Below are positions 5,995 through 40,023 of a DNA stretch of 40,027 nt, piece by piece (the stretch's first letter is position 1; each line of letters starts with the position of its first letter). Source of the stretch: Phycisphaeraceae bacterium (lineage in GTDB: Bacteria > Planctomycetota > Phycisphaerae > Phycisphaerales > Phycisphaeraceae). The stretch spans positions 1 to 40,027 of the forward strand of contig JADZCW010000013.1 of assembly GCA_020851395.1 (NCBI GenBank). The letters are read 5' to 3'. The translations under genes were made by a program, and so were the position numbers. A model generated the notes under the pieces. It did not search any database. It was not told where the DNA came from and was given only the letters and a program-made list of their open reading frames with translations.

Positions 5995-7539
5995 ATGCCG
6001 CACGATGGCACGTCGTTCAGCCGCCGCGAAATGCTCAAATTCAGCGCCGCCGCCGTCGCCGCCGCGAGCCTGCCCAAGGCCGTTCGCGCCCAGCAGATCC
6101 CCACCACCATGCCGACGGCCGCCACCCGGTCTTCCGGGGGGCCCAAGAACATCATCTTCATGGTCTCCGACGGCATGAGCATCGGCGTGCCGACGATGAC
6201 CGAGCACTTCAGCCGCCTCGTCCGCGGGCCCAAGACCTTCACCCACTGGCACGGCCTGCTGACCCGACCGGACGTGGCCCACGGCCTGTTCGACATGGCC
6301 TCACTCAACTCGCTGACCACCGACTCGGCCGCCGCCAGCAGCTCCTGGGGCTCGGGCTCGCGGATCTACAACGGCATGATCAACACGCTGCCCGACGGCA
6401 CCAAGCTCACCCCGCTGTGCCCTCTGGCGCGGTCGGTCGGCAAGCGCACCGCGCTGGTGACCACCGCGCGCATCACACACGCCACGCCGGCCGGCTTCGC
6501 CGCCAACCAGGCCGCCCGCGACGACGAGGACGAGATCGCCCCGCAGTACCTGGACGTGGTCGACGTCCTGCTCGGCGGCGGGCACAAGCATTTCTCGTCC
6601 GACACGCGCAAGGACAAGGCGGATCTCTTCGCCGCGTACCGTGACAAGGGCTACACGATCTTCAAACAGCGCAGTGATATCGCCCCGGGCCAGAAGCAGG
6701 CCAAGGTTCTGGGCGTCTTCGCTGACGGGCACATGCCCTACACCCTCGACACCAACAGCGACCCCGAGCTCGCCGCCCGCACGCCGACGCTCGCCGAGAT
6801 GGCCAGCTACGCCCTGGATTGCATGGCCGACGCGCCTGACGGGTTCCTGATGCAGATCGAGGGCGCCCGCATCGACCACGCCGCCCACGCCAACGACGCC
6901 GGGGCGATCCTGTGGGACCAACTCGCCTTCGACGACGCCATCGGCGTGGTGCTCCAGTTCGTGCGGGAGCACCCCGACACGCTGGTGATCATCACGTCGG
7001 ACCACGGCAACTCCAACCCCGGCCTGCGCGGCATCGGGCAGAGCTACCGCGATACCAACGCGGCCTTCGAGAAGGTCGCCCTGGCTCGTCAGTCCTACGA
7101 GGTCATGCTCCCGCAGTTCTACAGGGCGGCCGAGGGCCGGGCGGGGGTGCCGACCGACGCGGTGATCGAGATCGTCCGCAAGGGCACGGGCGTGGAGTTG
7201 ACGTCCGAGCAGGCGCAGGCCGTCGCCCTGGGTGTCGAGGGCAAGGGCCACGGCGGGCTCAACCAGCAGACGGACAACTACTACGGCGCGCTCGGCGAAC
7301 TGGTCGGCAACACCAACGGCATCGGCTGGACCGGCACGACCCACACCTGCGACTGGACGCTCTTATCGGCCCTGGGCCCGGGGCAGGACGCCTTCGTCGG
7401 GCTGCATCGCAACGTCGAGGCGTTCAGCATCCTCACGCGATACATGGGTATGGACTTCGCCAATCCTTCGATGACGCTCGAAGATGCCCGCCAGCACGCG
7501 ATGGCCGGTCCGACGCGCCGGACTGTCGACTGGGCATAA
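5995..7539 (+). CDS. alkaline phosphatase (PhoA family) with Tat signal peptide
   Basis: Twin-arginine signal FSRREMLKFSAAAVAAASLP. KNIIFMVSDGMSIG (metal/Ser nucleophile region), RITHATPAGF, DHAAHAN and ITSDHGNS motifs of the alkaline phosphatase family. ATG at 5995 is in frame with the 5851 track ORF. Confidence 0.85.
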   Translation: MPHDGTSFSRREMLKFSAAAVAAASLPKAVRAQQIPTTMPTAATRSSGGPKNIIFMVSDGMSIGVPTMTEHFSRLVRGPKTFTHWHGLLTRPDVAHGLFDMASLNSLTTDSAAASSSWGSGSRIYNGMINTLPDGTKLTPLCPLARSVGKRTALVTTARITHATPAGFAANQAARDDEDEIAPQYLDVVDVLLGGGHKHFSSDTRKDKADLFAAYRDKGYTIFKQRSDIAPGQKQAKVLGVFADGHMPYTLDTNSDPELAARTPTLAEMASYALDCMADAPDGFLMQIEGARIDHAAHANDAGAILWDQLAFDDAIGVVLQFVREHPDTLVIITSDHGNSNPGLRGIGQSYRDTNAAFEKVALARQSYEVMLPQFYRAAEGRAGVPTDAVIEIVRKGTGVELTSEQAQAVALGVEGKGHGGLNQQTDNYYGALGELVGNTNGIGWTGTTHTCDWTLLSALGPGQDAFVGLHRNVEAFSILTRYMGMDFANPSMTLEDARQHAMAGPTRRTVDWA

Positions 7540-7572
7540 TCCCAGGACGATCCTTCCCTCCAAAGAGACAGA

Positions 7573-7600
7573 GCAGTCCGCTTGCGGCTGCTTGTTGTCT
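7573..7600 (+). terminator. probable rho-independent terminator of the alkaline phosphatase gene
   Basis: GCAGTCCG / CGGCTGC stem with one bulge, followed by a T-rich tract TTGTTGTCTT. It lies 34 nt after the stop. Confidence 0.45.
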
Positions 7601-7886
7601 TGAAGATTTTCTTGTCAGCCGATCCACCGCCCCTTGCCTTGGCCCTGACAGGCGGCTACTTTTTTCGCGATATCCGTGTCATGGGTGTCGTGCCCGCCTC
7701 GGGCGGAGAAACAAAGCGCACGACCCGACGCCACCGGCTCCTTCGCACCCCTTTCCGTTAGGTCACTTCGTCCATCCGCGGCGAAAGCACAACAGAGAAC
7801 GCCTGTTGATCCACAACCAAGCACGACGTGTCCGCCCTGCCGATGTCGGCAGGACGACGCTCACGTCACCCGATAAGGAACCGTTT

Positions 7887-36624: not shown

Positions 36625-37719
36625 TCAAACGCCGCCGGCTTGGGCGGGAGGCAGCAGGGATCGCTCGATCAGACTCCAGAGCTCATCCAGACCGTCGAGC
36701 CAGCGCAGGCCCACCACCGCGCGGCGGACGGACAGCCCCTGCCAGGCGCCGGGGTCGATGTCCCGGAGCTTGACCCAGTCCTTCTCCGACGTCACGACCA
36801 CTTCGGCGCCGTTCTGCCGGGCCCAGGCCGCGATCTCCCGGACGTCGGCCTCGGTGTAGGCGTGGTGATCGGGGAAGCTCGTGCAGGCGAGCACGTCGAC
36901 GGCGACCTGGCGCAGGGACCGCTCGAAGGCCCCGGGGTTGGCCAGACCGCAGACGCCGACCACGGGCTCGTTCTTCACCGCGTCGAGCGGGATCGATCGG
37001 CCGTCGGCGTCGAGGTACTCGCGCCAGCCGTGGGCGGCGTGGGCGATCGGCGGCCGGCCGGCGCGCCGCTCGATCTGTCGATCCAGTTCGACCAGGGCGG
37101 CGGCGTCGACCTGATCGGCGCGAGTGACGATCACCGCGTCGGCCCGTCGCAGGGATGAAACGGGTTCACGCAACAGCCCGCGAGGCAGAAGATGGCCGTA
37201 TCCCCAGGGGTTTGAGGCGTCGATCAGAACCACGTTCAGATCGCGGTGCACCCGGCGGTGCTGGAAGCCGTCGTCGAGCAGGAAGACGTCGACGTCCGTG
37301 GTGTTCAGGACCTGTCGCGCAGCCTGTGAGCGATCGGCGTTCGCGGCCACTGGCACGCCTGGGCCCAGGGCCTCGGCCAGCATCATGGCCTCGTCGCTGC
37401 GATGGTTCGCGTCGGCCTTGTAACCGCGCAGGAGCACCGCCGGGCGCCGCCCGCGCTCCCGCAACCGGCGGGCGAGGTCGATGACCATCGGCGTCTTGCC
37501 CGTGCCGCCAGTGGTGAGGTTGCCCACACTGATCGTCGGCCGACCCAGCCGGTGGACGCTGCGCAGGCCGTGGTCGAACATCGCGTTGCGGACGACCACC
37601 GCCGCGGCATAGCCCGGCACGAGCGCATTCAGCCCCACGCGCAGCAGGCCGGCCTGGGGGCCACGCGCCTCGCCGGACATCACCGCGACGATCCCGCCGG
37701 GGCTGGATCGCGAAGACAC
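36625..37719 (-). CDS. lpxK: tetraacyldisaccharide 4'-kinase
   Basis: ISVGNLTTGGTGKTPMVIDLARRL (P-loop), LLRGY, FLLDDGFQH and DHH are the LpxK pattern over the full length. Confidence 0.9.
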   Translation of the reverse strand: MSSRSSPGGIVAVMSGEARGPQAGLLRVGLNALVPGYAAAVVVRNAMFDHGLRSVHRLGRPTISVGNLTTGGTGKTPMVIDLARRLRERGRRPAVLLRGYKADANHRSDEAMMLAEALGPGVPVAANADRSQAARQVLNTTDVDVFLLDDGFQHRRVHRDLNVVLIDASNPWGYGHLLPRGLLREPVSSLRRADAVIVTRADQVDAAALVELDRQIERRAGRPPIAHAAHGWREYLDADGRSIPLDAVKNEPVVGVCGLANPGAFERSLRQVAVDVLACTSFPDHHAYTEADVREIAAWARQNGAEVVVTSEKDWVKLRDIDPGAWQGLSVRRAVVGLRWLDGLDELWSLIERSLLPPAQAGGV

Positions 37720-37758: not shown

Positions 37759-38448
37759 TCACGTGGGATCAGCGGGCGATCCATCGCCCCATTCTCGCAG
37801 AATGGGCAGGATCCTGCGCATCGGCAGGCCCACGACCGTGCCCGGATCGCCCTGGACCTTGACCGGCCAGCGGCCCTCGAGCTCGGCCAGGTTGTACCCG
37901 CCGGCCTTGCCCCGCCATCGACCCTGCTCGAGGAACGCGTCGAGCTCCGTGGGCGAGACGGGACCAAGAGTCACGCGGGCGACATCGGCCAGGCTCAGGC
38001 GGCGCGTTTCCACGCCATCGCGCAGGGCGATGAGCATCACACCCGTGACGACCTGGTGCTCACGCCCGAGCAGGCTCTTGAGCATCGTTCGCGCCTCATC
38101 GATGCCCTGGGGCTGACCGAGCAGCAACCCGTCGGGGTTGACGACGATGGTGTCGGCCGCGATCAGGACGACCAGAAGGGTACGGGGTACAGGGTACGGG
38201 GTAGGGGGGAGTGGGTTCTCCTTACCCCGTACCCTGTACCCCGTACCCTTCAGACAACTCTCAGCTTTCTGTCCCGCCAGTTCTATCGCGTGGGCGATGG
38301 CGTCGCCCGCCTCGCTCGCCGGGCTGGGCGGGTCGGCGAAGGGCGGGTCGATCTGTGTGAAGGGGACGCCCGCCTCGGCCAGCAGGGAGGCCCGGCGGGG
38401 TGAACGACTGGCCAGCAGGACATGGGGCCATTGTGGCATGGGGGGCAT
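37759..38448 (-). CDS. maf: Maf-family nucleoside triphosphate pyrophosphatase carrying an in-frame 25-codon palindromic insertion
   Basis: VLLASRSPRRASLL, AADTIV, GREHQVVTGV, GKAGGY and GLP motifs. The probable start is ATG at 38448 or 38439; the track start at 38502 adds an atypical 18-aa extension. See the repeat at 38176-38250. Confidence 0.85.
   Translation of the reverse strand: MPPMPQWPHVLLASRSPRRASLLAEAGVPFTQIDPPFADPPSPASEAGDAIAHAIELAGQKAESCLKGTGYRVRGKENPLPPTPYPVPRTLLVVLIAADTIVVNPDGLLLGQPQGIDEARTMLKSLLGREHQVVTGVMLIALRDGVETRRLSLADVARVTLGPVSPTELDAFLEQGRWRGKAGGYNLAELEGRWPVKVQGDPGTVVGLPMRRILPILREWGDGSPADPT
38176..38250. repeat. 75-bp perfect palindromic element built of RGGGTAC heptads (28-nt arms, 19-nt spacer) inside maf
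   Basis: Arm 38176-38203 AAGGGTACGGGGTACAGGGTACGGGGTA is the exact reverse complement of arm 38223-38250 TACCCCGTACCCTGTACCCCGTACCCTT. Each arm is four tandem 7-mers. CAG flanks both ends. Confidence 0.9.
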
Positions 38449-38673
38449 TGTAGGGCGGGGGATGTCGACGTGGAAAATGGCGTTATCAGTGCTGATATTC
38501 AAGGTTTGAATTCATAAGTCCCGATAAATGAGGCATGACGGACTTAGCGGCCAGAGCCGCTGCGCCCGCCCCTCGCCGCTTACGGACAAACGGCGAGTCA
38601 GGACTCCAACGACTCGGTAGGCAAGGCTCACTCGACGCCGGCAGGTCCGACTCAGGGACGAAAGGACGAGCCC

Positions 38674-40023
38674 GTGCGAACCATCGCGATCATCAACCAG
38701 AAGGGCGGCTGCGGGAAAACCACCGTGGCCATCAACCTCGCGGCCGTGCTCGCCGGTCAGGGCCGCAAGACCTTGCTGGTGGACATGGACCCGCAGGGCC
38801 ACTGCGCGCTGGGACTGGCCGTGCCCGAGGCGCAGATCGACCGCTCGATCTCTGACGTGCTCCGCTGCGGCCTCGACGGCTCACTCGCCTTCGCCGACGT
38901 CACCTGGCAGATCTCCCGCCACCTGGACCTGGCCCCGGCCACCATGGCCCTGGCCGGCATCGAGCAGGAGCTGGCCAACGCCACCGACCGCGACCGCCGG
39001 CTCATCCAGGTGCTCTCGACCGTCGCCGACCAATATGAGTTCTGCATCATCGACTGCCCGCCGTCGATCGGCCTTTTGACCTTCAACGCACTGCGCGCGG
39101 CCCACGAGGTGATCATCCCCGTCGAGACGGGCTACTTCGCGCTGCAGGGTTCGATCAAGCAGGAGGCGACGATCGAGATGCTCGCCCGCCGGGTCAACCA
39201 CCAGGCGCGGTTCAAGGTGCTCGCCACGATGTACGACGTGCGGACCAAGCTCGCACGCGAGATCCTCTCCGAGCTCAAGCGACACTTCGGCGACAAGCTC
39301 CTGCCCGTGGTGGTGCACTTCAACAGCAAGCTCAAGGAGGCGGCGAGCTTCGGCCAGGCGATCACCGAGTACGACCCCGGCAGCCGGGGCATGCAGGACT
39401 TCGAACGCTTGACTGAGTGGCTGATGGCCAACCCCTGCGAGGCGCCCGAGGCGCCCGAGCCGGCGACGGTCGGCAGCCCGGCGCTCAGCCGCGCAGCCGA
39501 GCTGGTCGAGCGTGCCCGGGCCCTGTCGCGCCGCACCGCCGCGCTGGCCGCCAAGCTCCAGGCCGACGCCGACATCCAGGCCGAGCCGAGCGTTCGCGCC
39601 CCGCAGCCGCCGACGGCCGTGGCCGAGCCCACCCCGGCCGGCGACAACGGCGATGGCTCGGTCCTCGCCCCCGTGGCCCAGGAGATCCCCGCCACGCCGC
39701 CGCTGTCCCTGTCCGAAAAACTCGCCAAGGTCTACGGCGTGCGCGCCACGACGCAGGGCCTGCTCTTCGTGCAGCCGGTCGACGGCAAGACGCGAGCCGT
39801 CGCGGTGGCCGGCGACTTCAACGCCTGGTCGCAGACAGCCACCCCGCTGGTCCGGGATGAGCAACTGGGCGTCTGGCAGGTCTGCGTGCCGGTGCCGCCG
39901 GGCCGTTACCGCTACCGATTGATCGTCGACGGCCAGTGGGTCCACGACCCCTACAACCACTACGTCGAGTCGAACCCCTTCGGCGAGCTCGACAGCGTGG
40001 TCGAGGCCGTCGCGACGGCGTGA
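38674..40023 (+). CDS. ParA/Soj-family deviant Walker-A ATPase fused to a C-terminal CBM48 / AMPK-beta glycogen-binding-like domain
   Basis: N-terminus VRTIAIINQKGGCGKTTVAINLAA, LLVDMDPQG, IIDCPPS. A central Ala/Pro-rich linker. C-terminus AVAVAGDFNAWSQTATPLVRDEQLGVWQVCVPVPPGRYRYRLIVDGQWVHDPYN fits the GxFNxW...pGxYxYkfiVDGxW..DP pattern. The GTG start is preceded by AAAGGA. Confidence 0.9.
   Translation: MRTIAIINQKGGCGKTTVAINLAAVLAGQGRKTLLVDMDPQGHCALGLAVPEAQIDRSISDVLRCGLDGSLAFADVTWQISRHLDLAPATMALAGIEQELANATDRDRRLIQVLSTVADQYEFCIIDCPPSIGLLTFNALRAAHEVIIPVETGYFALQGSIKQEATIEMLARRVNHQARFKVLATMYDVRTKLAREILSELKRHFGDKLLPVVVHFNSKLKEAASFGQAITEYDPGSRGMQDFERLTEWLMANPCEAPEAPEPATVGSPALSRAAELVERARALSRRTAALAAKLQADADIQAEPSVRAPQPPTAVAEPTPAGDNGDGSVLAPVAQEIPATPPLSLSEKLAKVYGVRATTQGLLFVQPVDGKTRAVAVAGDFNAWSQTATPLVRDEQLGVWQVCVPVPPGRYRYRLIVDGQWVHDPYNHYVESNPFGELDSVVEAVATA

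Follow-up and report, generated by a model that had tools for sequence, protein, structure and literature searches.

An in-frame convergent pair of GGGTAC heptamer arrays, probably gained recently, in the maf gene of a Phycisphaeraceae bacterium

The maf gene of a Phycisphaeraceae bacterium carries, in frame, a near-perfect palindrome built from two opposed arrays of a G-rich heptamer, most of which is missing from the closest relatives. The element is a new case, in the Planctomycetota and both intragenic and in frame, of a known but mechanistically unexplained class of repeats. Some bacteria contain G-rich heptamers in large numbers, and neither how these arise nor what they do has been settled (Rehm et al., 2015, PMC4692102). 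On balance, and with moderate confidence, we favor the reading that this convergent pair was gained recently in a loop of Maf by copying primed from a pre-existing seed, not by transposition, and that it is carried as a tolerated passenger. Such an event would have brought (GGGTACR)4, a short degenerate stretch, and complementary C-rich heptads into the hypervariable loop that links helix alpha2 to the strand of the catalytic Asp, in one Phycisphaeraceae lineage. The outcome for Maf would be a disordered, Pro/Gly-rich loop longer by 23 residues, with frame and fold intact. One clean filled site and two identical empty sites provide a before/after pair for the G-rich heptamer class, and the locus offers an example of simple repeats adding disordered loops to enzymes.

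The element was examined within a 40,027-nt stretch of DNA, hereafter the window, and its parts are listed in Table 1 together with the arrays found in other genes. Arm 1, the loop, and arm 2 follow one another without a gap on the plus strand from 38175. The repeat finder describes the arms as 32 nt long, 97% complementary with one mismatch, and 13 nt apart. Inside them lie the 28-nt segments 38176-38203 and 38223-38250, which are exact reverse complements with a 19-nt spacer, just as a first-pass annotation of this DNA had said. That annotation also gave each arm four heptads. There are indeed about four units of GGGTACR per arm, but the innermost one is degenerate (GGGGTAG or GGGGTAA), and in heptad register the 13-nt loop corresponds to two degenerate units. 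Tandem Repeats Finder reports a period of 7, with 4.4 and 3.7 copies and the consensus GGGTACG. Arm 1 supplies the C-rich 3' arm of the hairpin in maf mRNA, while arm 2, in the maf sense, is the G-rich 5' arm with four G-tracts, a G-quadruplex (G4) motif; the pattern G3N1-7 x4 is present on both strands of the element. The 26-nt arm occurs twice in the window, both times in the element, and in none of 100 shuffles, and neither another period-7 array nor an inverted repeat of similar quality turned up in a scan of the 40-kb window. On each strand, two frames out of three stay open across the element. The minus-strand frame, which is that of maf, reads LKGTGYRVRGKENPLPPTPYPVPRTLLV, and the plus strand encodes KGTGYRVRGRGEWVLLTPYPVPRTL.

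Table 1. Positions of the maf element, its host gene and neighbor, and heptad arrays in genes of other bacteria. Positions without a locus prefix refer to the window.
Feature	Position	Strand	Description	Evidence or organism
maf	37759-38448	minus	Maf/YhdE-type nucleoside triphosphate pyrophosphatase	Pfam PF02545, E = 5.9e-37
lpxK	36625-37719	minus	39 nt downstream of maf	Order as in sister contigs
Insertion	38171-38239	minus	69 nt, 23 codons (Y68-V90 of Maf)	Missing in sister genomes
Pre-existing 'seed'	38240-38251	minus	GAAGGGTACGGG in maf sense, codons K-G-T-G	GAAGGGCACGGG in both empty sites
Arm 1	38175-38206		Plus-strand GAAGGGTACGGGGTACAGGGTACGGGGTAGGG; G-rich heptads on plus	Direct reading, repeat finder, TRF, folding
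Loop, 13 nt	38207-38219		Plus-strand GGGAGTGGGTTCT	Direct reading, repeat finder, folding
Arm 2	38220-38251		Plus-strand CCTTACCCCGTACCCTGTACCCCGTACCCTTC	Direct reading, repeat finder, TRF, G4 pattern
trpD array	L088:2925-4055			Nostoc
rnfC array	L034:4166-5563			Omnitrophota
SNF2 helicase array	L075:5475-8000			Victivallales
gidB array	L085:6041-7039			Acidobacteriaceae
Mur-ligase-family array	L009:1575-1754			Acidobacterial
Mur-ligase-family array	L077 (ORF 6223-7839)	minus		Acidobacterial
mnmG (GidA) hairpin-type arrays	L041:1859-2053, L047:6904-7098, L158-L165		Proteins P0123-P0242	Acidobacteria

G-rich heptameric repeats have been described as GGGAATC in Xanthomonas and as GGGGA(C/T)T in Nostoc, where each genome holds 70-75 convergent inverted pairs (Rehm et al., 2015, PMC4692102). 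Between 89 and 93% of the copies are intergenic and 7-11% intragenic, the latter in Xanthomonas, and copies vary between close relatives. The arrays prefer four units and form G4s in vitro, and for the class as a whole no function was identified and no regulatory role found (PMC4692102). The heptad type of the maf element had at first been taken as unknown, a view that these repeats, with four units and convergent pairs, overturn. Like them, the maf element has a 7-nt unit, the period found by Tandem Repeats Finder, that opens with a tract of three or four Gs; it has four units, and four G-tracts, per array; and its G-array lies 5' of a neighboring C-array on the opposite strand, a convergent arrangement that may form a stem-loop or G4. 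It also shares the intragenic position of a minority of copies and the presence or absence between close relatives. Unlike them, its unit is GGGTACR with a self-complementary GTAC core, its host belongs to the Phycisphaeraceae (Planctomycetota), its arms are perfectly complementary over 28 nt, and it sits mid-way in a conserved ORF, in frame. The cyanobacterial STRR heptamers, attributed to Mazel et al. in 1990, are reportedly counted in the same class. The small dispersed repeats (SDRs) of Nostoc, attributed to Elhai et al. in 2008, are said to be very small, specific sequences of 21-27 nt that turn up within or beside heptamer arrays and, now and then, in genes that they leave intact. In maf, unlike with the SDRs, it is the heptad arrays that make up the inserted DNA.

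The host gene starts at 38448 or 38439, and its reading frame on the minus strand runs unbroken through the element. The invariant residues of Maf (S/R/K/D type) are all retained in the window protein. An AlphaFold2 model built with 120 homologs has a mean pLDDT of 90.9, and Foldseek comparison with 2p5x, 4p0e, 4heb, and 1ex2 gives target-normalised TM-scores of 0.74-0.87. In this model the insert is a low-confidence coil that joins helix 47-66 to strand 90-100, the strand that bears the invariant D96-T97. This helix-strand connection ranges from 12 to 85 residues in the 120 homologs, with a mode of 15, and measures 12 residues in the sister and 35 in the window. The earlier proposal of an insertion in a surface loop of Maf is upheld, since the closest relatives are without the segment, the loop is hypervariable, and the segment is modeled as a low-confidence coil. 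The differences between maf and its sister number 11/9/34 by codon position, which fits purifying selection on the whole gene. Judging from the model, the Maf enzyme with its extra floppy loop is probably functional. In addition, maf and lpxK are probably co-transcribed, which would place the hairpin within a maf-lpxK transcript.

The closest homolog, P0002 from the Phycisphaeraceae MAG GCA_020850375.1, is 91% identical to the window Maf and 23 residues shorter. The contig that carries it, L001, runs colinearly with the window along all 4272 nt (86-90% identity) and is interrupted just once, by the 69 nt at the element. A cluster look-up added two more relatives without the insert (P0244 and P0245), whose Maf proteins are 89-93% identical; all three have exactly 23 codons fewer than the window Maf. 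The relatives come from GCA_020850375.1 and SRR29197585. A Maf identical to that of the window, insert included, was present on a 3.8-kb contig of a separate Logan assembly (P0243). The empty sites of L001 and L166 are identical in DNA and read ...CCCGAAGGGCACGGG followed directly by CGTCCTGATC..., with the break between CCCGAAGGGCACGGG and CGTCC, and the filled site in the window reads ...TCTGAAGGGTACGGG, the 69 nt, and CGTCCTGATC.... Comparison with these two empty sites reveals no target-site duplication at the insert, and no direct repeat able to mediate deletion exists at its junctions. Alignment of Maf orthologs indicates that the insert is lineage-specific, and no related segment occurs in more distant Maf homologs.

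The same comparison alters the expected extent of the insertion. A unit of 75 nt, or 25 codons, had been proposed; its passage in frame is confirmed, but the DNA that is extra relative to the sisters amounts to 69 nt, or 23 codons. The 75-mer is bordered by CAG on both sides, and the idea that these flanks were a 3-bp target duplication fails, because the empty sites already hold 12 of the palindrome's nucleotides and their flanks do not meet at a single CAG/CTG. Of the two CAGs, one belongs to the old flank, where the relatives have CCG, and one is part of the insert. Because three relatives share the empty state, two of them being identical in DNA, that state appears to be ancestral. At third codon positions maf differs from its sister by 16.7%, so that about 5 substitutions would be expected in the 64 arm bases of an element older than the split, and at most one mismatch is observed (Poisson P ~0.03). 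Near-perfect arms against this divergence suggest that the gain was recent, unless the arms owe their perfection to selection or to homogenisation within the hairpin and not to youth.

The junction itself suggests how the DNA may have been acquired. One arm has the seed as its outermost 12 nt. At the far end of the insert, the other arm finishes in the reverse complement of the seed, with the non-heptad GAAG/CTTC included. Just 5' of the insert in the maf sense (38240-38265), the window shows four C-to-T differences in 23 nt from both empty-site relatives, which agree with each other at these positions; one of the changes turns the GGGCAC of the seed into GGGTAC, and another produces the substitution P63L. 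In this one filled/empty comparison, the coincidence of the palindrome end with the gene's own GAAGGGCACGGG points to templated copying from the seed, either by a template switch during replication or repair or by a microhomology-primed copy. The pre-existing seed end and the missing target duplication together constrain the mechanism to templated copying and not transposition, so neither a cut-and-paste nor a copy-and-paste step would have been involved. The maf locus would then illustrate that a hairpin can arise de novo in a conserved gene, without target duplication and with one end drawn from a pre-existing heptad-like sequence.

Another GGGTAC-type array would probably have been the donor, although no donor locus came to light and the preference over local slippage is a weak one. 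All units of the insert are GGGTAC and the seed is GGGCAC in both empty sites, which makes an outside array somewhat more likely and pure slippage in situ from the seed less so. The distinguishing base is one of the four neighboring C-to-T changes and may be an ordinary mutation. Once present, the element is most likely a tolerated passenger, as far as its sequence allows a judgment, with selection acting only to require a position that is in frame, stop-free, and in a permissive loop.

Seed-primed copying must be weighed against a miniature mobile element of the MITE, RPE, or REPIN-like kind, moved in trans by a transposase and in frame by chance. The inverted-repeat build, the small size, and the clean presence or absence between close relatives would all suit such an element. 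Rickettsia palindromic elements (RPEs) likewise are palindromic DNA that keeps the frame of housekeeping ORFs and places its peptide at a structurally permissive site. MITEs and REPINs, which are short and non-coding, are also inverted repeats that fold into long hairpins, and REPINs, the REP doublets that RAYT transposases mobilise, resemble the maf element in size and in being inverted doublets. Nevertheless, a mobile element seems unlikely. The maf insert has no target-site duplication and, as far as the metagenome matches below reach, no family-specific internal sequence of the MITE or REPIN kind, and the 12 nt of one 'terminal repeat' that the empty sites keep are the target's own. Its arms are tandem simple repeats, whereas those of REPINs are unique REP sequence. 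RPEs measure about 100-150 bp, occur many times in a genome, and fall into sequence families that encode a conserved peptide, inserted in frame in many genes. The maf element, in contrast, comprises 69-77 nt of simple heptads, is single copy within the 40-kb window, has no detectable sibling or related peptide (a weak test), and has one end in common with its target; the in-frame property is all that the two share.

Across 241 million metagenome records, the loop 25-mer is nowhere matched exactly, and the 26-nt arm matches 19 metagenome loci, all of them generic heptad arrays from organisms of 43-71% GC; part of these are hairpin-type, and none has the same loop. The MITE- or RPE-like family considered in the first-pass annotation is not borne out by these matches. 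When the 30-residue insert was compared by HMMER with 1.84 billion representative proteins, it retrieved only two unrelated repetitive proteins, a weak test because the representatives were clustered at 50% identity, which could conceal in-frame inserts elsewhere. Four open-frame peptides of the element gave 0 matches in a protein word index, a search that was uninformative, since it missed the window's own Maf too.

Arrays of the same unit are widespread. A scan for GGGTACNGGGTACNGGGTA in one genome per species (596 Gb) returned at least 120 rows, compared with a chance expectation of about 70 for the pattern (estimated as 2 x 5.96e11 / 4^17). Of the 138 arrays among the matches listed, however, 108 contain four or more units, the mode being 4 and the longest array 20, which indicates that the matches are real arrays despite the chance expectation. 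Arrays of (GGGTACN)n occur in at least 15 phyla (loci L002-L121 of genome contigs); the matches listed include Acidobacteriota, Gemmatimonadota, Cyanobacteriota, Chloroflexota, Nitrospirota, Bacteroidota, Planctomycetota, Actinomycetota, Patescibacteria, Desulfobacterota, Pseudomonadota, Omnitrophota, and others. The heptad type is therefore not new to the Planctomycetota. Loci of Nostoc have GGGTACT units interspersed with GGGGATT/GGGGACT units, which makes GGGTACN a sub-type of the G-rich heptamer class. Many GGGTACN arrays lie at contig ends, which suggests that the arrays break assemblies. The three-heptad pattern is also found on 17 IMG/VR viral contigs (L141-L157).

The orientation of neighboring arrays is biased. 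Among the matches listed, 108 arrays lie clear of locus edges. Within 120 nt, a C-tract heptad triple is present downstream of 18 of them and upstream of 2, compared with 0.5% in controls, and this G-then-C topology is the same as in the window. Loci with a downstream C-partner include L004, L006, L015, L024, L027, L028, L043, L057, L058, L063-L065, L071, L084, and L107, among others. The partner is often another heptad (CCCCAAT, CCCTAGT, CCCCGAT) and hence only partly complementary.

Some of these arrays also lie in genes. A stop-to-stop ORF test had no power to discriminate, because open frames of at least 100 codons were present at 90% of the arrays and at 94% of random positions; location in genes was judged instead by Pfam checks of ten candidates. 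Pfam-backed arrays occur inside or between the domains of trpD, mnmG, a Mur ligase, rnfC, an SNF2 helicase, and gidB (Table 1). The two Mur-ligase-family arrays, in L009 and L077, occupy one protein loop on opposite strands, indicating independent gains at a permissive or hot site. In the MnmG of Ca. Sulfotelmatobacter and relatives, a 25-residue segment within the GIDA domain is present in about 100 of the 120 cluster representatives. This segment, ...PSTQYPV...LGTRYSV, represents C-heptads, a loop, and G-heptads, and the corresponding hairpin has energies of -36 to -59 kcal/mol in eight genomes. A few members possess a decayed form of 23 residues, and in L164 a palindrome of a different heptad, CTGAGAA, stands at the same MnmG site.

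Overall, the survey suggests that the class is much wider than described, with at least 15 phyla, a strong G-to-C orientation bias, and in-frame copies in genes. A bolder extension, which we offer tentatively and regard as rather doubtful, is that GGGTACN arrays and their G-to-C hairpin pairs are pan-bacterial micro-elements that are actively generated by homology-primed copying or by a dedicated enzyme, colonise ORFs, housekeeping ones included, in frame, and may persist for the lifetime of a clade. If this were true, acidobacterial MnmG would exemplify clade-wide persistence and maf a freshly caught event. The maf pair would then expose the entry rule, namely a heptad-like seed at one end and its reverse complement at the other.

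Folding predictions give the element a marked physical signature. The maf-sense RNA forms a single hairpin of -68.9 kcal/mol (shuffle mean -36.4; z = -9.1), and the same element as DNA reaches -41.3 kcal/mol (z = -8.6). With a G4-aware energy model, the isolated G-arm RNA adopts a G4 at -15.8 kcal/mol, compared with -7.5 kcal/mol without it, while the full element stays a hairpin at -68.9 kcal/mol. The competition between hairpin and G4 that had been proposed for the mRNA is thus only half confirmed. Both the hairpin and the G4 motif are present, but the G4 is favored for the isolated G-arm only and the full RNA is a hairpin. According to this model, the G-arm alone, for example before the C-arm is transcribed, would prefer the G4. 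A perfect mRNA duplex of 29-32 bp is a plausible RNase III substrate and ribosome brake. The predicted consequence for maf is a 29-32-bp, -69 kcal/mol hairpin in the maf-lpxK mRNA, which may slow ribosomes and offer a double-stranded substrate of the RNase III type, and a DNA site prone to cruciform or G4 formation. The effect, if any, would be to lower or uncouple maf expression.

Another reading is a selected cis-regulatory structure, whether an RNA hairpin/G4 switch or processing site that tunes maf or uncouples it from lpxK expression, or a DNA structure that affects replication or transcription. The very stable fold and the modeled preference of the isolated G-arm for a G4 are consistent with this view, as is the count of four units, which is the G4 minimum as well as the modal array size (PMC4692102; matches listed). 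A comparable in-frame heptad hairpin is, moreover, kept clade-wide in acidobacterial MnmG. However, we regard selection for regulation as quite improbable, given that three close relatives do without the insert. A terminator scan found nothing at the element and no terminator tail, and an Rfam search of the element gave no family above threshold. In the MnmG set, 1 of the 27 pairs is compensatory in the common register and the covariation term is unfavorable, so that selection for the MnmG structure is not demonstrated, and no regulatory role for these repeats emerged from the published work (PMC4692102). The Rfam matches returned for the maf element reflect generic long-hairpin similarity to miRNA precursors and all lie far under the gathering scores.

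Recent gain, as favored here, also has to be set against an ancestral segment that the relatives lost by palindrome-stimulated deletion. Long palindromes are deletion-prone, and the loop is variable in length. This history is nonetheless very improbable. Loss would have had to leave an identical junction in three relatives, confirmed in DNA for two of them, with no direct repeat at the junctions to drive the deletion, and it accounts neither for the missing segment in more distant homologs nor for arms that are near-perfect in spite of 16.7% third-position divergence. That the palindrome is an artefact of assembly or amplification, a fold-back chimera for example, is scarcely credible even though chimeric reads can create palindromes and the source is a metagenome-assembled contig, because both flanks are colinear with the sister contig, the insert is in frame and stop-free, the identical protein with its insert recurs on another contig of the separate Logan assembly, and many isolate genomes commonly show this architecture.

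Two further features were observed around maf. The sole sigma-70-like promoter match between 37600 and 38700 is at 38447-38476 on the minus strand, directly upstream of the maf start. Divergent from maf, at 38674-40023 on the plus strand, lies a gene for a ParA/MinD-type ATPase (AAA_31, CbiA) with a C-terminal glycogen-binding module (AMPK1_CBM / CBM_48), an unusual combination of domains.
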